From contig BROI01000002.1 of NCBI GenBank assembly GCA_027923505.1, positions 1 to 64,000 on the forward strand: 64,000 nucleotides of DNA. Direction: 5' to 3'. Origin of the DNA: Mayamaea pseudoterrestris. Its lineage: Eukaryota. The notes under the pieces are model-generated. The model had not been told where the DNA came from. It saw only the letters and a program-made list of their open reading frames with translations, and did no database searches. The position numbers and the translations under genes were made by a program. Shown piece after piece: positions 10,268 to 32,302 of the stretch (within the stretch, counting starts at the first letter, position 1; each line of letters begins with the position of its first letter).

Positions 10268-12866
10268 ATGACGGACGTTTTTAACAATGAAACGTTTCTG
10301 CGAGAGCGCGATGTGGTGCTCACTGTCACGGCCAACGGCCCCATGCAGCAGCAAGCGAATCACATGCTGCAAGACGCCATTTACATGCAGCGCTTTCTTT
10401 ACATTGTCAAGCATTTTGTCGCTGAAGACGTTGTCCACCAGTTGAGCGGCGGTGAAGCAAACAATGACACTGCATTAGTACCACCTGCCAGTTTGGCGGA
10501 AGCCGAGCCCATGACGCACAAAATTTATGACCTCTTGACGATGGGAAGCACCTACGAACGAGCCTGCCTTCGATCCGTTCCGTTCGCCTACATGAGCGGA
10601 CCGGGACGCATTTTGGACAAGCAAGGACCAGCATGGAAGAAAGTATCCGAGGAGCAGGCCATGCAAGCGATTGGAAACATGCTTTTGGAAGGCTTTCAGA
10701 TGGATAGTATTGATCTTTCCATTAGTCCCTACAGTGACTTTGTGCGTTTGTTGCAGCGCGAAGCGGAACATGCAAAGGCCACTGCGTCATTGTCGTCGTC
10801 TGGTCCGATTGTTCCGGAGCAACGGGATATTATACTCCTTCCACGAAGTGGCAGCGGAGAGTATCGCTCCGAGCAAGGCGAGGCAAACTTGGAAAAGATG
10901 TTTGAGAATCAAATGGGTAACAGCATTTTGTTCAATCTTGCGTCGGAACACGTCACGTCAACCTCCAATACTCCGGAACGTCGCATCAAGGCGGCGCTAC
11001 TGGTGTTGCAGGGCTTGGATGACATGAATGCCATGTTTCCGGCAGCGGAGCCAGCAATGGATGACGCGACGGGAGCCGCTTCCATCATCTCCAAGCGCCC
11101 TCATTTCTTGGTCCGCAATACATTGGCCAGCGGCGAGGACGCATGGACGGCACTTGGCCTCATGGAAGCTGCCGAGTTTCTCAGCACTTTGGTCTTTGAA
11201 GTGTGGCTCGAAAAGGAGTCTCCCTTATTGGCGCTCGGGGAAGAGACTGAGGAGCCTGATACCAAGACTCCCATTGACGCACCGACGGACCATGACGTGT
11301 TGCTGGGACGAGGTGGTTTGACGAATAGCTGGCCTGGCAATAAGCGCTTTCGCGATATTATTGCATTGCATCGCGCGGACTATATTCGAGCTATCAAGAT
11401 GGACAAGCCTGCCGTGGCACGCAAGATTGTTCGCGCGGTGCGAAAGGGGTGCCCACCTGGACGGTAAGTGTGTGTGTGTGCTGGTTGAGTTGGTGGTGAT
11501 GCACGGTTGGGGGTCTATACAGCCATTGGCTTGGCTAAATTTTATTAATTGTTGTTGCAGCTTTCTCCGCAAAGGTGACGATGGCCTTTGGTATGATACC
11601 GGAGACAAGACAGCTGGTGAGTCGTGCTTCTGAGATGATTTTGTATTAATTCTATAACATTCGAATTTCTCATTCTTAAATGTGGCACAGCCGAGAAGAC
11701 TTCTCAAGGACTGCGCGAACGCAGCAATGTCGAGAAAAGGCAGCGGTCGGAACTTCGCAAGGCGCTACGTATTCGAAAGGTCGATCTGGAGGACAGTGGC
11801 ATGGAGCAAACTGGACCGTCAAAGAAGACCAAGTATATCGACGCGGCTCGCATTGCCCCAACACTTAACTATGTAGGAACGAGTATTGCTGTTCCTCTGT
11901 CATTGAGCATGGCTCACGTCGTGTCTTTGCCCAGGAAGCCTGCACCGGGTAAGGGAAAGGCTGGAGGTGCCCTCATAACGGAAGGGCTTCCACCAAATGC
12001 CACGGATGCGGAAGGAAACATTCTTGTCACTGACTATGATATTCTGGTAAGTCAATGATACATGTTTTTGAATCTCTTTGGGAAAAGGTTATGATTGACC
12101 TCGACTGTCGTCATTTTTCATCCTCTAGTGCGGACGTGGTGGATTGACGAACCATCATAAGGGTAATCGGAGATTCCGCGACATAGTTACACTTCATCGA
12201 CCCGATTATGTTCGCGCGTCAAAGATTCAGAAACCTTCGGTTGCACGAGTCATTGGTAAGATATCTGCAAATCTATGGCCTTAACAGAGCATGCTGGTCA
12301 TCAATAGATCTAACACTTTCTTATGTCTCGTCTTGTTGGCAGTGCGTGCAATCCGAAATGGAGATCCACCTGGTCGTTTTCTCAGGAAGGATGACAAATC
12401 TGGCAAATGGATTGATATAGGCGACAAGAAAGCTGGTACGTTAAGCGACGCGTGCCATGAGTGTCAGTATCACGGTCCGTAATATATTAACACTGTGCTT
12501 TGTTCTTATAATGCAGCCGAAAAAACAAGTCAAGCGTTGCGTGAAAAACCGGAAGACGAAGAGGAGCTTGCGCGAGTTGACCTAAAGTCACTGGGCATAT
12601 TGCTTCCCACCGCGTCGGCTGGTTATCTGGCTGCGACGACTGCGAATGTGATGGGGAGCCTCATGACTGCTAATGCCGACAATGCTACAATGGCGAATAT
12701 TGCGCGTACGAGTCCTCTGATTGAGGAGATAATGAATGCTGTGAAAGGGACAACTGAAGTGCCTGATGTAACGCCACACGCTCTCGACAGTGCAGCTAAG
12801 GACTTTAAGGCTGCCAGCACGGACAATGTCGGAATCGGAGTAGCGCTGAAGCAAGCGGAGGTTTAA
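10268..12866 (+). CDS. Multi-DUF6824 domain protein; exons 10268-11463, 11561-11616, 11691-12046, 12129-12255, 12343-12435, 12517-12866
   Basis: Two canonical repeats (DVLLGRGGLTN..PGNKRFR...PPGRFL...W.D.GDK.AAEKTSQ.LRE) plus two degenerate N-terminal ones. All five introns are GT-AG and keep frame. Confidence 0.85.
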
Positions 12867-13020
12867 ATGATTATAGCAGTAGTCTACTTAGTTTGGTAGA
12901 AGTACAAACGACGGACTATAAGAAGCACTTGTATTTTGAAATGCCAATTATTGTACCAATACTCGTTGCTAATAAACGATCCTCTCGAAGCGGTTTCGAT
13001 GCATTGACGCGAAAAGACGT

Positions 13021-16000
13021 TCAATCACTGGCATTAGTCGCCGCAGCGATAGTCTTTTGGTCCGTATTTCTGCGCAGCAACTGAGAGTCAAGACATTCTT
13101 CGCCGTTCGGACCAAGCATCTCAATGCGATGAATGTAAACCTGCATGATTGCGAGCAACGACAAACAGACATAAGAGATTGCTGCAAGATCAAACTATCC
13201 AACACTAGGCTTTCAAACGTACATTAGGTTTAGTTTGGCCATTGCGAAAGACGCGCCCAATGGCTTGTAGCTCCACGCTCACATCCGCAACCTCTGAGTT
13301 GTCGCCAGGTCCGCTGTAGAGAGGATGGAATAAAACCACGTTATACGATTCCGATTGAAGATTCAGTCCAGCTGCATTTTCAAAACTCAAAACCAATACT
13401 CGCGGACGCGCGCGGTCTTCGTCTGTAGCGTCTGCGCGTTGGTAGTGGGAGATCTTGCGGTTAACATCCTGCACCGAGTCACTGTGCAGCATGTATGTAC
13501 ATCCGATCGGCGAGTGACCATCTAACAAGGACTGAGCGGCTGCGGTGACAGCGCCGATATCTGCAGCCGCAAAGACAATAATCTTTGTAAGCGGGTCCTT
13601 GTCCAGAATCTCTTTGCAAAGAGACACAAGTTCCTCGCCACGCGACTCCATCACAGCATTCTGGTTGAGCCATTTGCCGATATCAGTTTCACGATTTAGA
13701 TCATCAAAGTCGGCTGGGCTAACGCCAAGGCTCCGTTTCGATTCTTCGATACCGCTCTGGCTAGCCAGGTAGAGCACTTTTTCCTGCTCTGACATCTTTA
13801 CAGCCCGGCGTCGTTCAATAAGCTTGATGCCGTCCATATGCTCCTCGGCCTTGTTGCGACAGCATGCGACGTCTAAATAAGCTTGACAACGCTCGTCAAT
13901 CATTTTTCGCACTTCTCGGCTCTGCTTGGGCTCCAAATAGGAAGACAAGAAGATGTCACGCCCAGACTCCTTCTCAAGCTTACGCCAATGCGACGATAGA
14001 CCTGTAACATAAGTGCCGCCCATTAAACTCGCGAGTTCCGTGACGCGATGTGCACTGTCGAGCAACGGTGTCCCAGTTAAGCCCAGCATGGAGCGACGGA
14101 AAACCAAAGGTCTCTCTTTGATGTCCTTTGTTGTGATGCCGAGTTGTTCCCGTCCAGCACGACGATTCCTTTCTTTAAAATCCATGTCGCTTGCTACGTC
14201 TTTCGCCTTTTTGGTTTGCTTCTTCGTACCGTCAGATTTGTCTTCCGCGGCTGGAGGCGTTGCCTTGGTCGCTTCAGTCCTCGCTTTCATCTCAACTTTC
14301 GTTGTACAGAGACTCTCATGGACCTCATCGACAATGACGCGCTCCCATTCAAAGTACTCCAGCGGCACTCCTGTGTCATCTATCTCATAGATCTTCTTGC
14401 GCAGCTCCAAGATGGCTTTGGAATAAATGTGTGTATAGTATGCTGAGTCATCGCGTCGTCGTTGGCTGTTTGCATCGTTCCCGCCCGCGTAAGGGTCTTG
14501 CGATGTGTGCGGTATCCAAATACCGGACGCTGCTGTTTGCTCAAGTTGTCCAGATTTGTTGGGCAGTGACGGAACACGTCTTTCACCCCATTGGGGGTTT
14601 GATTTAAATACCAGCGATTTAAAATACCCCACACTTTCCAAAATGTCCACTGGGCTGATGACAATGTCAGCTTTAAGTATTGCACCTAACGATGTATTTT
14701 TCAGTGTCTGAAAATCATAAATTTTGACGACTGTAAGAGATTCTGCAAATTTCGCAACTTCCGACTCCCACTGGTCAATGAGGCCTGGTGGAACTACGAC
14801 AAGCTGGAACAAAGCAACCAGTTAGAAAAAACGATGGCCAATCAGATTAACAGGTGATGTATGAACTGTGTACGCACCGTGGCGGCGGACATGCGTGGAG
14901 CCTGCATAGACAGCCTTGCCTTTTCGATACCTTTAAGAATCAAAGCAATCGAAACTACAGTCTTTCCTGCACCAATTGCATCCGCAACAACTCCTCCACA
15001 GATATGGGAAGTCCGTGAAGCTTTTGCCATCAGGCTGAACCCTGTCGATCCGGGCATTTCAAATTCGCTCAGCTCGACTTCTTCATAGGATGTCTCGCCA
15101 TTCTCAATCGCGATCAACTTTGACACAACTCTTTCCTGGCGAGGATACAGAGAGTGCAGCCCTTGGAGTGGAACCTCTGTGGAAGGTTCTTTGTCACAGT
15201 TGTGAACAATGAAAGGGTTTGAAGGAGGGTCAATTTGCTGAAAAGCGTTGGAGAGTTTAAATGCAACCTGCACATTACCCTCCACATGCCGACCTCGGAG
15301 CAGATGCGCGGCAGCATGATGTGCAGCAACCTTTGGATAACATTGCACATCAAAATTGCCAGAGCGGCGGTCTAGAACAAATTTGAAGGGCTTGCATGCC
15401 TTTTCCAGTTGCAAGACATAATCGCGGGCGGCGCCAGGTTGACAAGTTCTCTCCATGCGATCCCGTTCATCATTCACTATCCAGTCTTCGGTTGGGCGGT
15501 ATGGAACCACATCCGAAGAAAACCCAAAGTCTTCCGCATCCAATATGTTAAGGAACGGCGCTTCCGCATCGATGGAATATTTTAAGCCTGACTTCGCTGC
15601 CAGTCTCAGAATGGGTGGTACACAAGTTGAATTGAAAATACGTATTATCTGCTGTGCTTGTTGTCCTCCGTGGACCTGAAGTTCTATTGTTTGGCTTTCG
15701 CTAGAAGCGGCGTCACCGCGTAGTAGCATCGTTTTTTGAACTTCTGACAATCCAGTAACTCGAACGAGAACATCAGAGTCCACTGGAGACATCACGCGTA
15801 TGTTCGACTTGACAGCTAGCAATCCAACTGCTGGAGAAAGCTTCCATGTACACAGTTTCAGTGCAATCTCCGTCTGGCCATTCAGCGCATCGCATGGCTG
15901 CCAATCGCGAGGAAATATTGCCACGACAGATGCGCTGTCGGTATAGTTGATGGACGAGGAGATAACCAATTGATCTGGGCCAGTGCGATGCACGTTTGGA

Positions 16001-19000
16001 ATAATGATAAGGTAAAGGTCGCTGTCGCTAGAATTGCTTCGCCGAATCCAAAGTGCGGACTGGTTGGTTGTTTGTCGACATTTGGCGCGAATATACTTCC
16101 CAGCGACTACCATCTGCTTGGCCTGCATGTGACCTGAAGGAGCTTTTATTAAGATAGTTTCCGGCCATTGCTTCCAATTGTCGGCGTATATCCATCGTCG
16201 CTCTTCACCTCGATCCCGGGCGTTGACATAATGTTTCTTGTTGTGGCTCTTTGCTGCCGTGCACTTAAGTTCCTTAGCGACTTCGTCAGCCAGTCCTACT
16301 TCGGCTCGCAGGCTATCCGTCACGCCTTCACCTTCAACTATCACACGAGCGGCAACATCTTGTTCTCTGACTAGCCAACCTGCTGAATCTGCAGTTTCAC
16401 TTTTCAAAAGTGTCAGCATGGCACATGGATCCATCTTGCCGAAAACGTAAGGTTCTGTTAGCGCAGGATTGTATGAGGTAAGTTCGGCCATTGCCCCGAT
16501 GTCAATATTCTTGACGCCAGTAAGAGCTACTGATTGTGTCTTCAATTCGCCAACCGTTATCCGTATTTCTGCTACGGCTTCACCTACTCCATGATTATCG
16601 CGAGCATAGTAGAAGATGATCCAACGACGGTGGTCGCGTTTAATCCGATGGAGATTGAAAACTACGCCAGCCAAGGTTGCAACGCGGTAGATATCATTCT
16701 CAACGCGAACGATGTCCTTCAGATTCTCCTCCGTCAAACAAACCGATGCAGGTGCAATTGTTCGTAACTTTTCTTGAAAAGATGCCGGATCATGGTTGCC
16801 CTGTGCAACGTCAAGGTCGAATAAGCTGTGCGAGCTTAAGTTCGGACCAGCATGGTCGCTGATGCAGCGTCGACAGCATGAGACGCGGCAGACCTGTAAT
16901 GAAAAGGACAGTAGCATGAGCAACACCAATTTATTGCTTGTCAATCGCTAGCTGCGACCGTCAAGACCTACTTGGCATTGCACGAACGCATCCGCTATGT
17001 TTCCGCTAGTCTCGCAGATGCACAGAATCGAGCTTTGCACTGCATTTTCTGCGAGATCAACAAGATTGCGGAGAAACGGCAAACTACACGAAAGCGATGA
17101 TTTTTCAGCCGTCATGAACATTGAATTCATCGCAGACCAGTTCTCTGCACAATCTTTGAGAATGACGTCCGCAATTTGCTTGCCAGCATGGGTCTCATTG
17201 CGCAGTTGGTTGCACGTAATTGCTGCGAGCATCGTTGCACAAACGACGGTTAAACTCATTGCGTTACCAGCTAAGAATTTAGCGCAAGGTGTCAGCACAT
17301 GCATTCTGATCCTCTTATTGACGATAACATCGCAGACGTACCCAAGTCTCCAAGCTGCACGTTTGTCTCGTTACCTGACGCAGAGAGGTAAGTGTGAGCA
17401 ATTTATACAAAGAAAGAAGCAAGAAATTAAAGATTATGCGTCATTACCGAGAAGCAAACGGAAGTAAGGAATGCCTTGAGCCAAAAGTCGCTCGCAGCCC
17501 AGCAGTGGCCGGCCTCTGTGCGGAACGAAGAAGTCGCCACCTGGCGTCAAACAGGATGCAATGCCGGGTGTGGCTTGGCGATGGGCTTCACGCCCCGCAT
17601 TCTGCGATACGTTCCACGAGAACGATGAGTAAAGAGGGTCGTGGCTTTCCGCGTCACGCACAGATGAAGCGTATAGAATGTCGATAAAGTCGATGACTCG
17701 GTTGCTTTGACAGTTCAGCCATGGCAGCCACAGTTTTGGTGGCACCTGCTTCTGACCATAAGCCCTCCTATATTGTGTTTACAACGTTAGGAATGTCGAC
17801 TGAGAACTAAGCATGACAGGTCATTTAACGTACCAGTTCGTGAGGAACCGTGCATTGCGAGCAATCCCATACGCCTTACGGGTACCTAGATTATATTTCA
17901 AATCACCGCGCGTACTGGCAAAAAAGTCAGCTTCCTGGAACCTTTCTCTACGGCTTTGTCGGCCTGGAGGACCATTTAATGCCTCGCGATATCGCCTCAC
18001 GTCTGCACGACAGACAAGTTGAACGAGGCGCGTAAGGAATCGCATTGCAAAATCCACAGTTCCACGATATTCTCAACTTACCAGGGTGGTCATCCTCAAG
18101 CATAAACGCCGTTATTGAATGTTTCGCGGGCGACGCCAGATGCTGGACTATCTTAGTCCAGTAGTCGCCGAGATCATCAGTTATGTCATCGTCTTTCGGA
18201 CGCCAAACGAACATGTATGTACGTTCACGCGTCTGTGGCAAACCATACTTTTTGGTGTCCATCTTGACAAACCGCGTGCAGAACGTACATTCTGTTGCAA
18301 AAACAAGTGTGTCATTTGCTTTAGAAATACCATTGGCTTTCAATATGTCATCAAGTGTGCAGTTCTGTTCGCACTTGGATGGCCACTCCACGTTACACAA
18401 GCTACTGCTCCCACCCCTGAGAAATCCTTTGACTTTTGCGCCACAGCGAACACCATATGTGCCTGGCACCTTGTCCACCACAATGCTCCCCTTGACGCAA
18501 ATAAATGTGAGCTTCGCTCCCTTGTCCTTTGCCTTGACATCTGATATATTCTTTCTTTTGTCAATTTCGCTCAATCGCACTCTACCAGTGATATAGTCGC
18601 TCATCTTCTCCCATGGTGCATTTAGCACGTTTTCAAAGATCGTCATTGCTGGTTTCTCTTTGAATAGAATCTCAACCGCAGCCATGAATGTTTCGCCAGA
18701 GCACCCCTTGTCTTCAATGTCGAGTCTCTTGTTTCGAAGCATGCTAAAATTCTTACATGAAGTGCCAGCAATGAACAAGTTCATCGCAGGTACCGGTCGC
18801 ACTTGGCCATAGACATCTCGGGGATCGTCATCTACCATTTTTGTAATGTCCGGATATAGAACAGAGTCAAAATTTCGAGCCAGGTACGCCTGCTTGAAAG
18901 GCTCAACTTCGCAGCTGAACTCGTGAGAGAAGGCAAAGCTGTCCGCTTTCTTTCTCAATTGCAACTGCTCTTTAACCAGCGCCAAAGCTAGTGCGGGAGC

Positions 19001-20643
19001 GTCGGTGCCGCTGCAGGCTGTTCCAAGTGCGAGAGGGCATGATATAGAACCAAGATTGCCGTCTCGGGCCAACGCGCGATCTAGCAATCCAGCAATCTTA
19101 TCGATTTGCTTGCCGACAAGCCGATCAATAATGTCGTCCGTTGCTTCCATACCACAAGGATCCAAAAACTCCTTCGTCGCAGCAATCTCGTCCCAGCTCA
19201 GGTCCTTGTAGTGCGGTACGTTCTTTGGTTCAATGTCTGCTGACAATGCAGTTTTTGTTTTTGTTTTGTCCTTGGTGTCAGCCTTCTTTCCGCGTCTTAT
19301 TTCATGCTCAGACTCGCTGCTTTCCTCGTCCATTTCAAGATCATCGTCATCTTCGTCGTCGACGAATTCAAAATCGTCTCCATCGTCAGACTTGACAAAT
19401 GGCTTCTTTTTTGCACTCTTTGGAGCTACTTTTGTCTTTGCGATTCGTTTCGCAGATTGCTTTGGCTTGGCTGCCTCCGCAACTCCTTCCATGCACACGT
19501 CGTCGTCATCAATTTCCGACAAGGCGTGCAACTCATCATCCGATGAAGATAAATAGTAGCTCGTGACTGTTTGCTTAGCAGCTCGTTGACGCTTGGGGTT
19601 TGCTTCATTTAAAGAATCTGTTGGGGGCGATGGACGCTTCGTTGACTTGCTGATTGGCACGATTTCAATGCTCGTTGCGGATGTATCATCATCTTTATCA
19701 TAAGCTGCGTCTACAGATTCGTCTAAGTCGCTACCAACCATGTCATCGTCGTAGTCCGATAATGATAGCTCTCCAAGTGGCTCTCCCCATGGCAACTGAT
19801 TAGATCGTCGCTCCGCTAGTTCAATCTTGGACAGCCAGTCTTGCGGGGAGAGTCGTCTGTTCGCGGAAGGTTTTAAAGCGTTCAAGCTCTTCATGAATAC
19901 ACAAGACTTTGTCAATTGCTGCCTACTTTTGACCAAAAACTCCCGTACAAAGGTTTTATGCTCCATCAACAGGTCCATGTCGAAGGCTAGTGGCAATTTC
20001 CTCGCAACCTCGGCAGCCTTTAACACGCAAAAAGACGCTCCATCGCTTCGATCAAACACGAAATCCACCAAGTTCGAAAGTATACCAAGAGCTCCTCGGT
20101 AATTGTCGAGTGAATGAGCATCATGGTAGCGCTCCATGTTGGGTCGCTGCAACCAGTAGATTGGAGGTGCGCCGCTATTTTCTTCGCGCATGGCCCAGTA
20201 GCCCCGATACTCGCGCGTACGATCAATGACAATGCTGCTGAGATTGTCAATCGTGACAAAGACTGGTTCTAATGGCGACGATGAATTTGGGTATACCCAT
20301 CCCTTGAGCAACGTGTCGTTGGTGAGGCGCATGTCGTTGTAGCTAGGCAAGGCAAGCGTTTCGTCACTGCTTGCGGAGCAAAAGTACCAGTCTCGAATAC
20401 AAAAGTAGGGTTCTCGGTCAGAAGACTTTGCGTCGGTTTCCGAGAAGTAGTCATAGTCGCGCTGGAACTTTGCTAGAAACTGAAGGGTGAATGGTTGAAG
20501 AAGGCGAATGGTGAGCTTTTGATGAATAATGCTTGCCATGTCGCTTCACGATCCTCTTTCCTCACCTCCTTTTCAGAGTACGAGTGTTCTGGTATCCCTT
20601 TCGGGTGTTCGACCCGCTGGTCCTTGGATGAGGTTGTCCCCAT
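13021..20643 (-). CDS. DNMT5: DNMT5 DNA (cytosine-5) methyltransferase with C-terminal SNF2 ATPase; exons 20643-20566, 20479-18082, 18002-17834, 17767-17448, 17374-17342, 17270-16972, 16893-14878, 14803-13223, 13140-13021
   Basis: MTase motifs: I LGTACSGTDAP, II FSCEVEPFKQAYL, IV AGTSCKNFS, VI FENV, VIII GLPQTRERTY, IX RPLLGCERLLAQGIP, X GDLAGNAMS. Cys-rich segment CICETSG...QCQVCRVSCCRRC. SNF2 motifs: GGVVADAIGAGKT, VIVDEVHE, LGLTGTP, AAGLNLQ, QAIGRVFRNGQ. All eight introns are GT-AG and in phase. Confidence 0.92.
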
Positions 20644-20918
20644 GGTGCCCAGCAGTGGATCAATCGATTTTGTGTGGAGCATGGATCGCCGGCATTGGAT
20701 CGAGCGCGCCATGACGCAAACCTGTTGAGTACCGTTGCGAGGGCTTTTCATTTCTTTTCATCGCATTGCTCGTTTCGTTTTTGTCGAGCGATCGCATTTG
20801 GTTGCGCCGCGGGAGTTCGATGGCAGTCTACCCGTTTACTGGCAAAGCGCAAAGTCTGGCAACCTCTGTCAGTTCGCTCATATTATTTCATTCCAGTGCA
20901 TCGAACGTTTCGATTAAA

Positions 20919-21341
20919 ATGTCGACTGTTATTCGTAATTGTAATTTATATGAATCGCACGCCCTTCAGCTGTCGCAAAAGTTGAAGCCACGCATTGAGG
21001 TTTTGGGTCTTGAACAGTGGCAGCAGCAAATATATGGTCTTATTTTTTATAAACTACACAAGGATATGTGTGTATTCGTAATCAGCCCGAATGATTACAA
21101 ACATCAAAACGACGTGAAAGACGTTTACGAGCTGCTGAACAAGCTTGAAAATTTGGAAAAAGTTTCGCTCGTAAAGCTTGCGGTATGGAAGAGTCAGTGC
21201 CAGACTAATTCTCTAGATGAATTGAAAACCTATTTTGATGTTCTTCAGTGGCAGCATTCTGGATGGAAATCTTTCAAGAACGTCCATAAGAGCAGTTCGG
21301 CTATTGGCATTGTCGCGCAGTGCGTTCAGCCATTCTTGTAA
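20919..21341 (+). CDS. Small diatom 'LGLEQWQQ...LxKLAVWK...PFL' domain protein, copy 1
   Basis: LKPRIEVLGLEQWQQQIYGLI...LVKLAVWKSQC...GWK...SAIGIVAQCVQPFL. Clear paralogy to the genes at 21788 and 27387. Confidence 0.75.
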   Translation: MSTVIRNCNLYESHALQLSQKLKPRIEVLGLEQWQQQIYGLIFYKLHKDMCVFVISPNDYKHQNDVKDVYELLNKLENLEKVSLVKLAVWKSQCQTNSLDELKTYFDVLQWQHSGWKSFKNVHKSSSAIGIVAQCVQPFL

Positions 21342-21787
21342 AGTGATCTTCATTCGACGTGACGGTCAATAGTAAAATAAGATGTTTCTTGCTGTTTGAT
21401 TATTTGGTATTGCGTACTACGGTAGTGTAGTAATATAGGTTTGTACAAGGTCAAGCGATGCACCGCCCTATCGCTCAAAATTCATCGCTGCCAGCTTGCT
21501 TGGCTCTGCCTATGTTGATGCAGCTTATACCGCACAATTTGCCGCTTCATTGCTACCGACGGATGCGTTAAAATATGATGTCTGAGAAGCGATCAAGAAT
21601 GATCGCTGTTTAAGAGAGATCTAGCAAAGATATTGATACACAATGTCGCAGCGCTGATAGATTCGGACTGGCCGCGGGATTTTCGCGCAAAGCCAGTCCA
21701 GCGCACAAAAACCTGCCGCCAATCGCAAGCAACTCTGCGCGACGTAACAAACTTGTCATTGACCGTTTGCTTTGTCTTTGACTCACA

Positions 21788-22177
21788 ATGGACTCTTACG
21801 CGGAACGACGAGCCACGACCCTTGCGCGAAGTTTGGAGCCCCGCGTCTCGAAACTAGGACTGGACGTTTGGCAGCAGCAAGTCTACGGTCTCATATTCTT
21901 TCACGCCTACAAGAGTCCACAAAGAATGGCATATGAGGAGGTTGATCGAGAGATTCAAATTATTACCTTGTTGGAGAAATTGGAAAAGATGGAAACGATT
22001 GCCCTCTTGAAGCTTGCCGTTTGGAAGGGTCAGTGTCAAATGAATCCAAGCAAGAAGCTTGATACCTTTCTTGACTATCTTCGATGGGACAAGTATGGAT
22101 GGAAGGTTGACAAGAAGGTGGCAAAGAACCAATCAGCCATGGGCGTTGTGGCGCAAGGTGTTCAGGGCTTTCTGTAG
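21788..22177 (+). CDS. Small diatom 'LxKLAVWK' domain protein, copy 2
   Basis: LEPRVSKLGLDVWQQQVYGLI...LLKLAVWKGQC...GWK...SAMGVVAQGVQGFL. Confidence 0.8.
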   Translation: MDSYAERRATTLARSLEPRVSKLGLDVWQQQVYGLIFFHAYKSPQRMAYEEVDREIQIITLLEKLEKMETIALLKLAVWKGQCQMNPSKKLDTFLDYLRWDKYGWKVDKKVAKNQSAMGVVAQGVQGFL

Positions 22178-27386: not shown

Positions 27387-27980
27387 CTACATTTCTGGCA
27401 TGTAAGCACCGTCAAACCAGCTTGGACGGTCCGCACCTCCTTCTAAGCCTTCCGAGAATTCATTAATACGTGTGTTGATTGTTGCTGCGTCTTTGTTTGA
27501 ATCCTCAGTCTTGCCTTTTAAGAATGGTGCGAGGCATACAACGACAGTCTCCATTGCCGAGTGGATTTCGTACTTCTTTTTTAAACTTTTCCAACCATCT
27601 TTCGACCATGCCACGAAATCATAATAGGTAGTAAGCTTTGTGGTGGGATCGGAAAGGCACAAGCTTTTCCAAGCGGCAAGTTTGACGAGGGAAATAAGTT
27701 CTTTTAGCTCCAAGGCCTCCAGCAACTCGAGGACTTTCTCTCGCTCCCTGTTGAAGATAGTTCTCTCGTCTTCAAAGCCCGTATTTCGATTCTCCAAAGA
27801 AGGACGCTTGTAAGCATTCAGAAGAATGGTTCCGTAGACTTGTTGCTGCCACTGTTCGAGACCAAGTTGACTGATTCTTGGGCTTAGCTCATCGGTCAAT
27901 TTAATCGCTCGCCTTTGAGGCGCTCCAATTGGAGATGGAGGTCTAGTGGTGAATGAAAATGAGCTGGAATAGCTTGTCAT
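27387..27980 (-). CDS. Small diatom 'LxKLAAWK' domain protein, copy 3
   Basis: LSPRISQLGLEQWQQQVYGTI...LVKLAAWKSLC...GWKSLKK...SAMETVVVCLAPFL. Confidence 0.8.
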   Translation of the reverse strand: MTSYSSSFSFTTRPPSPIGAPQRRAIKLTDELSPRISQLGLEQWQQQVYGTILLNAYKRPSLENRNTGFEDERTIFNREREKVLELLEALELKELISLVKLAAWKSLCLSDPTTKLTTYYDFVAWSKDGWKSLKKKYEIHSAMETVVVCLAPFLKGKTEDSNKDAATINTRINEFSEGLEGGADRPSWFDGAYMPEM

Positions 27981-28474
27981 CGGGACTTATGAAGGTAAGC
28001 TGCCGGAGAGCAGATTCTACATGTGCGTTGGACGCAACGAAAGATCCGTTTCTCGGTTAACTGAAAATGTCACATCCACGTCGTAGCGCGTCTTTCCGAT
28101 ACTCTCGCTGTATAGCATCCCGCAAACTATGGACGTACTTGTACAACACTTGGCGCCCTTCATTTAATAATGTGTGAACTGAATTGGAAAGTGTATATGA
28201 TATGTGATTGTTGCGCATGCTCATCATCACATGTTACACTAATGATTTGGGCTACGTTCGCTACTGATGTTAGCTAAGAATCGCTTCGGTACTCGATCAC
28301 GACGACGACCTCGATTCGCTCGACCATTCGACTGCGGCCATGGACGGGCTCCGATAGCGCAATCCTTTTTTGCTACCGCTGCACCATAAATGTCAAAGCA
28401 AGGCATTTTTAGAGTTGCTTATAGTAGGCAGATAATATTCAGCATTGCGCAACCAAAAGATATTTCGTCTTGGC

Positions 28475-31400
28475 ATGCGACGCCGCCCTTTGCGTATCAT
28501 TGGCTGCTCCTTCATCGTCATGTTCTTTCTTGCTTCTACAAGAAATTGGAGGCAAGCTACTTGCTTTGTTCATAATAAACATTTGAAACGAAACAGAATA
28601 TCCATTTCTAAAGCTACATTCATATCATCGACCCGGCGCGGCGCTGCCAATTCGCGATGGAACGTTGGCGATTTTGTTCGACTAAAACACTCGAATGAAA
28701 CGAGTGGAACGATTCAGCAGGTTCGAGGCTCGGGCTGGTATACCATCAAGCTTCATGATCATGCTGACGACAAGCCGATGAGTGTCAGGGGAACGCAGCT
28801 ACTAGCAGCTGTCGATGTCGAAGGAACGACTTCATCAAGTCACCATCCGGTGGCACCTTCATCGCGCTCACTGAGCACTGCCAGCGACAGCGAGACAACA
28901 CTTCCTCAACCACCCACCATTCATGATTTGGATGCCTTGCTGCAAGATCCACCGAGCAATGTCACGGACGCCACCATGATGGCGCAACTGCGTCACTTTT
29001 CCACTTTTGATCGCTGGATCGTTTTGACCGATTTACACTGCGCACCTTCCTCACTGACCACTTGTCTACAGGTGCTTGACAGGACGCACTCACTCGCCTC
29101 CGAGCGCGGCGCCGGAGTACTCTTTTTGGGCGACTTTTGGCACCAGCGCGGCGTGCTGCGGGTCGACTGCTTGAACGCCGTGTTAGAGTCGCTGCAGTCT
29201 TGGACGGTGCCCCTGATGATGATTCCTGGTAATCACGATCAAATTACCTTGAGAGGGCATGAGCATGGATTGACGCCACTGGCGAATGCGTATCGAATAG
29301 CAGTGCCGGTGGTCGCTACTGATGTTAATGATGCTACTACTGCAGGCAGTCAACAATCCACAACAGACACTACCATTCCAGGTATTCTCATATTTTCACA
29401 CGCCACAAAGTTTCATCAGGCGCTATTCGTGCCACACATGCGTGACGCGGCCATTATGGAATCCATTGTCCAGTCACCCCAGGCACTGTCTGCGACAGCC
29501 TTGTTTCTGCACGCCGATGTCACTGGCGCCTACATGAACGACATGGTGCAGTCATCGGGTGGCGTTCCGCCAAGCATGTTTCCAAGCGGCAAGCACATTT
29601 ACTCGGGGCACTTTCACAAGCCACATGTAGTGGAGTCGAGCCATGTGCGCATTGAATACTTGGGGTCGCCGTATCAAGTGTCGCTCTCCGAGGCGCACCA
29701 AGACAAGGCACTGGCAGTGATGAGTGCCATGGAGGGTTGGAAGTGCGTGGAGAAAATACCAATGGATATTGGACGCAGGCATTTTCGTGTAGTCGGCACG
29801 GAGCAGCTCATGAAATTGTCGGTACATGACGAATCGACGATTGCTTTGGACGGCGCTGCATCGTTGAGGACAGGCGATCGAGTCGTCTGCTCCTTGTCTA
29901 AACGAGAGATGGACAGCATTGACAGAGACGTAGAGAGGCGCATTCATCAGCTACGAAAGGCTGGTGTCGCCGTGGAGCTTCGAGAGGTACCGGAGCAAAC
30001 ACCACTGACTGCTGGCGAGTTTGTGAGTAACTCGGCGCCTGTCGAAAATCTGTCGCCGAAAGCAACCTGGAAGGCTTATCTCGATCACGAGGTGGAACGT
30101 GAAGCGATAGAAAGCTCAGCCGCAGAAGCTCTCCTGGCTAGTGGATTGGAGCTTCTAGACTCTGTGACAGAGGATAATGAAAAAATTAAGATCGATGCTT
30201 GGGAGGAGCGCACCGAGTTGAATTTCGATTCGGTGACACTGGAAGGTTTTGGGCCGTTTCGAACCAAGCAAACGTATCCACTGCGTAATCGGGGTCTTGT
30301 CTTGCTTCGAGGTAACAATCAGGATGGAGGCGCCGATAGTAATGGAAGTGGCAAGTCCTTGCTGGCCATGTCAACTCTTTGGTGCTTTACTGGGTCGCTT
30401 GACGCTCGGCCGATGGAGGACTCAAAGGTGTCAGACATTATAAATGATGAATGTAAAACTGCTAGAGTCACGGTTCAAGGAGAACTTAACGGTGTCGGCT
30501 TTTCCGTTACGCGGTCGAAAACTTCGTCAAAAAGTGGTTTGATTTTCCTTCTTGATGGTCAAGACGTGTCGGCACAGTCGGCCAAGGAGACGCAGGCATT
30601 GTTCGAAGAAAAGTTGGGAGTGGATGCCCGCATTCTTGCAAGAACGATCTTCCATGGTCAGCATTCCATTGACGATCTTCTTGAGGCCACTGACACAAAG
30701 TTGAAAGATGAATTATCCATGCTTGTGCCTTTAAATATATGGCAAGAAGCCGCGGCCAAGGCAAGAAAGCTGGGACGCGCAGCATCAAAGCGCATTGATG
30801 AGATTCGTGGTATGTTGACGATTCGCACAGGCGATTTGGACCGACTAAAATCTCGCGCGAGTAGCGTGCAAGCAAATGTGGAGATGATTGAGCGGGCGCT
30901 TTCTACGCGTGAGCGTTTGCTGGCTGAGGAGCTAGAAACAGGCGAGCTCTCGCGTCCTTTCGATATCAGTGCGCTCGGAAGTACTTTAGAAACAGCGACC
31001 AATGCTGTTCGTGATATTGAAGAAAAGATTGCTATTATACAACGTCAAAAGCAAGTCGAGTTGCTGGATCTGCAGAAATCTTTGGAGGAGGCAGTGGCTA
31101 CGAAAGTGGCGTTAGATAACGAGCTGCAGTCGCTTCTGCGCCAACGCGATATTCTTGCTTTGAAATTGGATTCAGCAAATGAGAGTCTCATGAGCATTAA
31201 AACGACTTGGAATATTGATTTGTCCCAGGGCGTAGTCAACATGCAGATGCCTGATTCGTGTCCGACGTGTGGACAGCCACTTACGGACGAACATGTTCAC
31301 CACAGCGTGGAGGAAGCTGTTGGTGCCGACGCTATAGAGGCTCTAGCCAGCGTTGAAAAAGTGGAGGCTGAGCTGGCTGATTTGCAGGCCCGATTTGATG

Positions 31401-32302
31401 TGTGCCAGAACTCGATAACGGAAGCAGTTGAAACTTTGACAGAAGCGCAGGCAAAGCTTCGTGAACGAGAGACGTACTGGAACCAAGTGGCAGAACAAGA
31501 CAATGACGAACTGCTGCAGGCTAGGCAGACACTCGCGGAGGCATCGACGACGTTCACTTCCGCTGCAGGTGAGTTGCAGAAAAACGTTAGATTGGACGAG
31601 CTCAAGGCCGGCATCGACAAGGAAAATGAACGATTGCGATATCAAAAAGAGTCTCTTTTATCCCTGACGACAGAGATGGAAGACTACGAGCGCATGATTG
31701 ATGAACTTCACTGCGACGTTGCAAAGGAGCGAAGCACTGAAACATCCATGGCTGACTTGTCGAATGGGTTTAGTCCTCGTGGCGTCCAGACGTTTGTTCT
31801 GCAGAGTGCTATACTATCTCTTCAGAACGCCGCCCAGTCATATTTGAACGATTTCAGCGATGGTTCGCAAAAGCTAGAAATGACATTGGACATGGGAGAC
31901 CGCATTTCACGGCGAGCCTTTGTGCGCGACGCGGATGGCAACTACCGGGAGCGCGCGCTCGCGTCCTTGTCGGGTGGACAATGGCGGCGATGCTCTCTCG
32001 CTTTGAATCTTGGCTTCTCTGACCTTGTAGCTAGACGTGGACAGCTCCGGCCGTCGTTATGTGTCTTGGATGAGCCGTTGACACACTTGGACCGGACGGG
32101 AAGGTCAAGCGTCGGTCGCGTTCTTCGTGACTTGTTGCGCCGCAATGCGCAAGGGACTGCTCATTCGCTCTCCGTTTCGACGATACTACTGATTCTTCAG
32201 GATTTGACGGCGGAGGAACTGGAAGAGTCGTTTGACTGCATTGACGAGGTTGTCAAGAAGGATGGGTATAGTCATGTCGTTGTTGATGAAGGCAATCTGT
32301 GA
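28475..32302 (+). CDS. Single-chain Mre11/SbcD nuclease - Rad50/SbcC SMC-ATPase fusion, with N-terminal presequence and SH3/KOW-like module; intronless
   Basis: Phosphoesterase motifs TDLH, LGDFWH, IPGNHD, HAD, SGHFHKPH, YLGSPYQ. ATPase start LEGFGPF, Walker A SNGSGKS, coiled coil with zinc hook CPTCGQ, signature LSGGQ, Walker B/D-loop LCVLDEPLTHLD. Confidence 0.92.
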   Translation: MRRRPLRIIGCSFIVMFFLASTRNWRQATCFVHNKHLKRNRISISKATFISSTRRGAANSRWNVGDFVRLKHSNETSGTIQQVRGSGWYTIKLHDHADDKPMSVRGTQLLAAVDVEGTTSSSHHPVAPSSRSLSTASDSETTLPQPPTIHDLDALLQDPPSNVTDATMMAQLRHFSTFDRWIVLTDLHCAPSSLTTCLQVLDRTHSLASERGAGVLFLGDFWHQRGVLRVDCLNAVLESLQSWTVPLMMIPGNHDQITLRGHEHGLTPLANAYRIAVPVVATDVNDATTAGSQQSTTDTTIPGILIFSHATKFHQALFVPHMRDAAIMESIVQSPQALSATALFLHADVTGAYMNDMVQSSGGVPPSMFPSGKHIYSGHFHKPHVVESSHVRIEYLGSPYQVSLSEAHQDKALAVMSAMEGWKCVEKIPMDIGRRHFRVVGTEQLMKLSVHDESTIALDGAASLRTGDRVVCSLSKREMDSIDRDVERRIHQLRKAGVAVELREVPEQTPLTAGEFVSNSAPVENLSPKATWKAYLDHEVEREAIESSAAEALLASGLELLDSVTEDNEKIKIDAWEERTELNFDSVTLEGFGPFRTKQTYPLRNRGLVLLRGNNQDGGADSNGSGKSLLAMSTLWCFTGSLDARPMEDSKVSDIINDECKTARVTVQGELNGVGFSVTRSKTSSKSGLIFLLDGQDVSAQSAKETQALFEEKLGVDARILARTIFHGQHSIDDLLEATDTKLKDELSMLVPLNIWQEAAAKARKLGRAASKRIDEIRGMLTIRTGDLDRLKSRASSVQANVEMIERALSTRERLLAEELETGELSRPFDISALGSTLETATNAVRDIEEKIAIIQRQKQVELLDLQKSLEEAVATKVALDNELQSLLRQRDILALKLDSANESLMSIKTTWNIDLSQGVVNMQMPDSCPTCGQPLTDEHVHHSVEEAVGADAIEALASVEKVEAELADLQARFDVCQNSITEAVETLTEAQAKLRERETYWNQVAEQDNDELLQARQTLAEASTTFTSAAGELQKNVRLDELKAGIDKENERLRYQKESLLSLTTEMEDYERMIDELHCDVAKERSTETSMADLSNGFSPRGVQTFVLQSAILSLQNAAQSYLNDFSDGSQKLEMTLDMGDRISRRAFVRDADGNYRERALASLSGGQWRRCSLALNLGFSDLVARRGQLRPSLCVLDEPLTHLDRTGRSSVGRVLRDLLRRNAQGTAHSLSVSTILLILQDLTAEELEESFDCIDEVVKKDGYSHVVVDEGNL

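Follow-up and report, generated by a model that had tools for sequence, protein, structure and literature searches.

Published work regards the RFTS (replication foci) domain as characteristic of DNMT1-family DNA methyltransferases, and it is named as a DNMT1 character (PMC12344493). In DNMT1, residues W464/W465 of this domain are needed for H3K9me3 binding (10.1101/2020.04.27.064493), and inhibition of the enzyme proceeds through its acidic C-lobe (PMC12474915). The RFTS domain of MET1 binds doubly ubiquitylated H3 in an arrangement unlike that of DNMT1 and inhibits in another orientation (PMC12474915), and that of DIM2 binds H3K9me3, again in an arrangement unlike DNMT1, and assists DNA binding rather than inhibiting (PMC11315935). 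Cryptococcus Dnmt5 performs ATP-dependent methylation of hemimethylated CG (10.1101/149385, 10.1101/2021.10.01.462825); its chromodomain binds H3K9me3 (10.1101/149385) and is flexible in cryo-electron microscopy maps, with specificity and autoinhibition residing in the core (10.1101/2021.10.01.462825). In diatoms, DNMT5b N-termini have been described as LBR/Tudor, MBD, HAND and similar, and DNMT5a-dependent regions of Phaeodactylum overlap H3K9me2/3 and H3K27me3 (Hoguin et al. 2023, PMC9998398). The subject of this report is a minus-strand gene of Mayamaea pseudoterrestris in a window of 64,000 nucleotides (the whole stretch of contig BROI01000002.1 that was analysed), which encodes a DNMT5b preceded, in the same reading frame, by a domain with a predicted RFTS fold.

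This combination would extend the RFTS domain to another methyltransferase family. In the covered portion of Supplementary Data 4 of PMC9998398 (part 1 and term searches, reaching 30 of the 44 DNMT5b rows), all 43 entries of PF12047, the Pfam family of the RFTS domain, stand in CMT-like, DIM2 and DNMT1 rows and none in DNMT5 rows. Full-text searches, mostly at title and abstract level and with subscription journals excluded, returned no RFTS domain on DNMT5 and no description of free diatom RFTS proteins.

A DNMT5b gene and the predicted fold of its N-terminal domain

As judged from its sequence, the gene encodes a DNMT5b in which a methyltransferase is combined with an SNF2 ATPase. Its public gene model (P0003, 2337 aa, source label Mayamaea pseudoterrestris) matches the window at 100% and supplies the short first exon. 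Contigs from two of four sequencing runs, all from one study, of a kind not on record, and compared over 12800-20900, skip eight CT..AC introns, the first included, and cover the N-terminal domain; among the spliced contigs listed, none crosses the linker. The fusion of domain and methyltransferase is independent of splicing, because both share one frame, free of stops from 20545 to 17948, in which a low-complexity linker connects the N-terminal domain to the methyltransferase.

PF00145 (33.7 bits) and PF00176 (SNF2, 54.5 bits) both score above their cut-offs, and BAH and CXXC domains are absent from the Pfam matches of P0003. The methyltransferase motifs are intact over a span of about 490 aa (GTACSG at aa 512, AGTSC at 597, ENV at 642, PQTRER at 774 and AGNAM at 1000), C601 within AGTSC being the likely catalytic cysteine, and so are those of the ATPase (Walker A DAIGAGKT at aa 1737, DEVH at 1930, GLNLQ at 2250 and QAIGR at 2284). 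A homologue search with P0003 residues 440-1250 gave 184 proteins, of which 120 were listed; the closest among the matches listed are diatom proteins with 40-56% identity, and fungal DNMT5 reach about 30%. In a methyltransferase tree of 61 rows (69 were offered and 8 dropped because the match was too short), P0003 shares a starred clade with CAMPEP_0172555300, which Supplementary Data 4 of PMC9998398 labels as DNMT5b. This DNMT5b clade, supported at 98/92, contains 44 rows including P0039, and fungal rows fall outside it. The DNMT5-type motifs with long spacers, the C-terminal SNF2 region with Walker A/B and the tree grouping all agree with DNMT5b, and the SNF2 region, the lack of a BAH match and the DNMT5 homologues speak against the DNMT1/MET1/DIM2 class, which combines BAH with a DNMT1-type catalytic domain without an ATPase. 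A genome search found this gene as the sole DNMT5 methyltransferase of its own genome, together with two further C5-methyltransferase matches in single-domain frames, and did not find DNMT1.

The N-terminal domain almost certainly has a complete two-lobed RFTS fold, to judge from a structure model with a pLDDT of 93.6 and a pTM of 0.89. In this model, the N-lobe comprises a short helix and an acidic loop followed by a beta barrel, and the C-lobe is a helical bundle, which is the arrangement that characterizes the RFTS fold. Foldseek and two VIA searches placed DNMT1, MET1 and DIM2 chains on top, clearly separated from unrelated rows. The structural alignment begins at DNMT1 377-385 and its ranges stop at model residues 205-220; the last helix (model 213-226) lies mostly outside the region matched by solved RFTS structures.

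Among 1.84 billion representative sequences searched, 67 proved to be relatives of the domain. PF12047 is matched by four of them (19.1, 22.4, 24.7 and 30.8 bits), three above the cut-off of 22 and one just below, and these matches provide an independent sequence link to RFTS. A profile of the four scores the Mayamaea domain at E 6.5e-26 (best of 1000 shuffles, 0.42), as a reciprocal check only, the four having themselves been found with that domain. A preliminary description of the window had recognized by eye an RFTS-type segment at the N-terminus of an ATP-dependent DNMT5, and a long acidic/basic linker between segment and enzyme; the model and searches bear out the fold, the single frame and Pfam matches the fusion, and the linker indeed holds 47 D/E and 27 K/R among its 178 aa.

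Relatives of the domain and origin of the fusion

By similarity, the nearest relatives of the domain are free-standing RFTS-like proteins, including paralogues in its own genome, and not DNMT1. Two intact paralogues, on contigs C21 (L002:1308-3673) and C1 (L003:2-2391), consist of an RFTS-like domain, a linker and a shared unannotated helical domain, and the protein of the C1 paralogue (P0136) carries a C-terminal protein kinase domain. A decayed gene copy on contig C20 (L016:6064-7236 in G000:C20, minus strand) retains a frameshifted RFTS-like part matching P0003 aa 26-189 and, about 150 bases on, the C-terminal end (aa 2167-2328), the methyltransferase and most of the ATPase being gone. Identity of 35-54% among the fusions and best relatives, with the invariant core residues retained, points to selection on the domain. 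Among 30 clusters looked up, those named to species are Mayamaea (two), Grammatophora oceanica and Fragilaria crotonensis, the others being environmental records; as far as names go, the family appears to be a diatom one. It is a family of RFTS-fold proteins mostly missed by Pfam.

A DNMT5 methyltransferase follows the domain in five of the 67 relatives. Other partners are a DOT1 fusion (P0186) and weak Tudor matches in three proteins (P0150, P0154, P0164), and GW/WG-containing tails, which are possibly Argonaute hooks, occur in P0149 (10 occurrences), P0148 (6), P0131 (4) and P0209 (3). Environmental proteins in which an RFTS-like domain is joined to a DOT1 histone methyltransferase domain are P0186, P0196, P0197 and P0199.

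The domain is rare on DNMT5b, whose N-termini vary widely. When a family profile was run against the N-terminal 620 residues of 57 further close DNMT5 homologues among those listed, it matched none of them (best E 1.2); some are truncated or dinoflagellate proteins. The PTM/DIR17 Tudor domain (PF21743) stands at the N-terminus of 22 of these 57, in the slot that the RFTS-like domain occupies in P0003, and the six fusions in total (P0003 and five others) show no Tudor match at the level of the Tudor-type homologues. In the methyltransferase trees, the fusions form two groups, P0003 with P0123 and P0124 at 100/99, and P0175 with P0189 and P0167 at 93/82-95/79, the latter adjoining Tudor-bearing rows. 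The domain tree (62 of 68 rows) holds the same two groups apart and sets that of P0003 beside its own-genome paralogues; a single fusion clade was not rejected by AU (approximately unbiased) tests (p 0.233 and 0.152). The trees are unrooted as regards the direction and number of swaps, and the simplest reading of these data would be a late swap from Tudor to RFTS, once or twice. That the RFTS-fold domain replaced the usual Tudor domain is quite probable.

Several earlier proposals need adjustment in this light. Conservation of the segment in orthologues, the absence of which the preliminary description had named as refuting its reading, is largely lacking, the five other fusions being the only further occurrences found on DNMT5. 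The segment had been called a DNMT1-type domain and the protein a hybrid of DNMT1-like targeting and a DNMT5 engine: the RFTS fold on a DNMT5/SNF2 enzyme stands, and the DNMT1 affiliation gives way to free-standing relatives and to the apparent lack of DNMT1 features (CxxC, WW, acidity). The use of a chromodomain by Cryptococcus DNMT5 was correctly quoted (10.1101/149385). The reliance of diatoms on DNMT5 for CG methylation agrees with the knockout of Phaeodactylum DNMT5a (PMC9998398), but the present gene is a DNMT5b.

Possible roles of the N-terminal domain

By analogy with described systems, the domain would serve as a tethered recruiter whose target is H3 or a chromatin protein carrying ubiquitin, a role with about an even chance of being correct. 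The RFTS-fold domain would derive by domain shuffling from the free-standing RFTS-like family expanded in diatoms, and not from a whole DNMT1, and would likely work as a chromatin reader on a flexible tether, recruiting DNMT5b. Its inter-lobe cleft would bind either the H3 tail or a chromatin protein modified with ubiquitin, through residues other than the DNMT1 di-tryptophan, and the domain would raise the local enzyme concentration on repeat chromatin; hemimethylated-CG specificity and autoinhibition would remain with the methyltransferase-ATPase core, as in Cryptococcus. This role is favoured because DNMT1, MET1 and DIM2 have H3 binding by RFTS in common whereas they do not share autoinhibition, because Cryptococcus Dnmt5 recognizes H3K9me with a flexible chromodomain while its core provides specificity and autoinhibition, and because DNMT5a-dependent regions in Phaeodactylum overlap H3K9me2/3 and H3K27me3. 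A slot shared with Tudor and with the Cryptococcus chromodomain would also suit a reader, as would the chromatin modules among the other partners (DOT1, weak Tudor). DNMT1-like targeting is plausible.

Conservation over 68 rows marks R118, G119 and Y134 as invariant and W57 and W121 as near-invariant; D112/R113, the R118-G119-x-W121 stretch and the PWG end of the last helix (W257 95%, G258 98%) together make up the invariant family residues. A helix and acidic loop (model H2-6, with conserved F31, Y35, D36 and D42) stand at the position aligned to the UIM (ubiquitin-interacting motif)-like helix/ubiquitin recognition loop of DNMT1 and MET1. Animal DNMT1 RFTS domains carry an N-terminal C3H zinc finger; CxxC was not found in the first 130 aa of P0003 and occurs, unaligned, in three of 68 family rows. 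The net charge of the domain is -1 (aa 27-237; family median -2 in 59 rows).

Several observations weigh against a histone-reading recruiter. No WW pair was found in the domain, a pair that H3K9me3 binding by DNMT1 needs, and the strand at aa 106-112, which we take to be the counterpart of the W464/W465 strand, has no aromatic residue; among family rows, none of 65 has an aromatic residue at position 110, and 39 of 64 have one at position 109. Foldseek gave modest TM-scores (0.34-0.51 on the query). PF12047, which the preliminary description had named, gave no match to the domain in a Pfam scan or in a genome-level scan (where the control was also unmatched), and neither the domain nor three family profiles matched an RFTS domain among PDB sequences. 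In 62 of the 67 relatives, many of them fragmentary records, there is no DNMT5 methyltransferase, and the main role of the family may lie outside DNA methylation. The one SRA match of the genome is a 2OG-Fe(II)/SRA/SGF29-Tudor frame (L010:1-3288 in G000:C4) with an AlkB-like 2OG-Fe(II) part, a candidate methyl-DNA/histone reader with an oxygenase; no RING match was found in its 1095 residues scanned, and no UHRF1-like H3 ubiquitin writer was found in the genome.

Some of these points suit a protein-protein adaptor for a non-histone partner, by which DNMT5b would be recruited indirectly. That partner could be a factor of replication or of small-RNA pathways, ubiquitin attached to some other protein, or the free-standing RFTS-like paralogues. 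The invariant family residues are presumably not those with which DNMT1 contacts histones, no enzyme domain is seen in most members, GW/WG-rich tails occur in some (10 and 6 in P0149 and P0148), and two intact paralogues share the genome; set against the H3 tails bound alike by the RFTS domains of DNMT1, DIM2 and MET1, and against the position in the DNMT5 histone-reader slot, this leaves the adaptor possible, though on the unlikely side. An autoinhibitory lid over the DNA-binding site of DNMT5b, released by a histone mark, would match what RFTS does in DNMT1 and also in MET1, where the domain is oriented differently and the acidic C-lobe contact is missing (PMC12474915), and DNMT1 RFTS chains rank first among the structural matches. 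It is very improbable all the same: DNMT1 inhibition requires acidic C-lobe residues, against which the net charge of -1 of the domain argues, about 180 low-complexity residues separate domain and enzyme, DNMT5 has its own ATPase-based autoinhibition (10.1101/2021.10.01.462825), and the DIM2 RFTS is not inhibitory (PMC11315935). DNMT1-like autoinhibition by the domain is unlikely because the functional features of DNMT1 (CxxC, WW pair, acidity) appear not to be kept. Finally, an upstream RFTS-like gene may have been joined to DNMT5b as a tolerated passenger with no bearing on methylation, as the absence of the domain from most DNMT5b, their variable N-termini and the decayed C20 copy could suggest. 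That is improbable, since the in-frame fusion is kept in at least six divergent proteins, with domains 43-54% identical within the group of P0003, the domain is whole and predicted to fold with high confidence, and Tudor is absent where RFTS is present.

A wider scenario may be drawn, although it is doubtful. Diatoms would have lost DNMT1 but retained its RFTS domain in a chromatin-reader family that is free-standing, expanded and mobile and reads a mark by a new surface. The domain would have been joined anew to the ATP-driven DNMT5b, twice independently, as well as to DOT1, to kinases and to GW-rich tails, so that targeting of the DNMT1 kind was recreated on a different maintenance enzyme with no UHRF1 involved. 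An RFTS domain in the Tudor slot of DNMT5b amounts to a natural swap experiment on which mark directs DNMT5 to diatom repeats, and a small, well-folding domain allows one to ask whether histone reading by RFTS can do without the tryptophans of DNMT1 or without a ubiquitin signal of the UHRF1 type; the reach is limited to the six fusions known.

Gene layout and comparison with known systems

Features of the DNMT5b gene in the window
Feature	Position	Strand	Details and basis
Whole DNMT5b gene	13021..20643	-	nine exons, 2337 aa; 8 CT..AC joints on + strand
Exon 1	20566..20643	-	26 codons, ATG at 20643; P0003 model and spliced contig joint 20566->20479, GT..AG
RFTS-like N-lobe (predicted)	20129..20479	-	P0003 aa 27-143; model secondary structure, structural alignment, conservation in 68 rows
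RFTS-like C-lobe, helical bundle (predicted)	19868..20128	-	aa ~144-230
Family-specific last helix ending in conserved PWG	19784..19867	-	aa ~231-258; conservation and model
Low-complexity acidic/basic linker	19240..19783	-	~180 aa
C5-cytosine methyltransferase region	17250..19239	-	split by introns; PF00145, motifs, homologues, tree
SNF2-type ATPase and last exon	13021..15020	-	stop 13023-13021; PF00176, motifs, introns

A short basic motif, RR..V.Y.E, recurs in many DNMT5b linkers of both the Tudor and RFTS types (e.g., P0015-P0019, P0175 and P0167). Elsewhere in the window, three short paralogous frames (20715-21341, 21782-22177 and 27387-27986) share the pattern LGLEQWQQQ.YG ... LLKLAVWK, and a 1288-aa frame at 28436-32302 resembles, by eye, a fused SbcD/Mre11 nuclease and SbcC/Rad50 ATPase.

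Taken together, the finding is real, a new domain combination of known parts whose role is testable but unproven. Compared with the mammalian DNMT1 RFTS (PF12047; PDB 5WVO, 5YDR, 6PZV, 3EPZ), the Mayamaea domain lacks the CxxC zinc finger and the di-tryptophan, appears not to be acidic, has an extra conserved C-terminal helix with PWG, lies below Pfam detection and belongs to a protein without BAH/CXXC. Arabidopsis MET1 (9V4O, 9M5X, 9PEB), which has two RFTS domains, and Neurospora DIM2 (9BAP, 9BAQ, 9BAZ) are, unlike P0003, DNMT1-family enzymes with BAH and no ATPase. In related fungi, identity is about 30% across half of the methyltransferase region. Cryptococcus neoformans Dnmt5 (DNMT5a) differs in its chromodomain and falls outside the DNMT5b clade, but it shares the methyltransferase-SNF2 layout and a flexibly attached N-terminal module, a flexibility proposed for P0003 as well. 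The diatom DNMT5b proteins (PMC9998398) resemble P0003 in their long split methyltransferase followed by SNF2.
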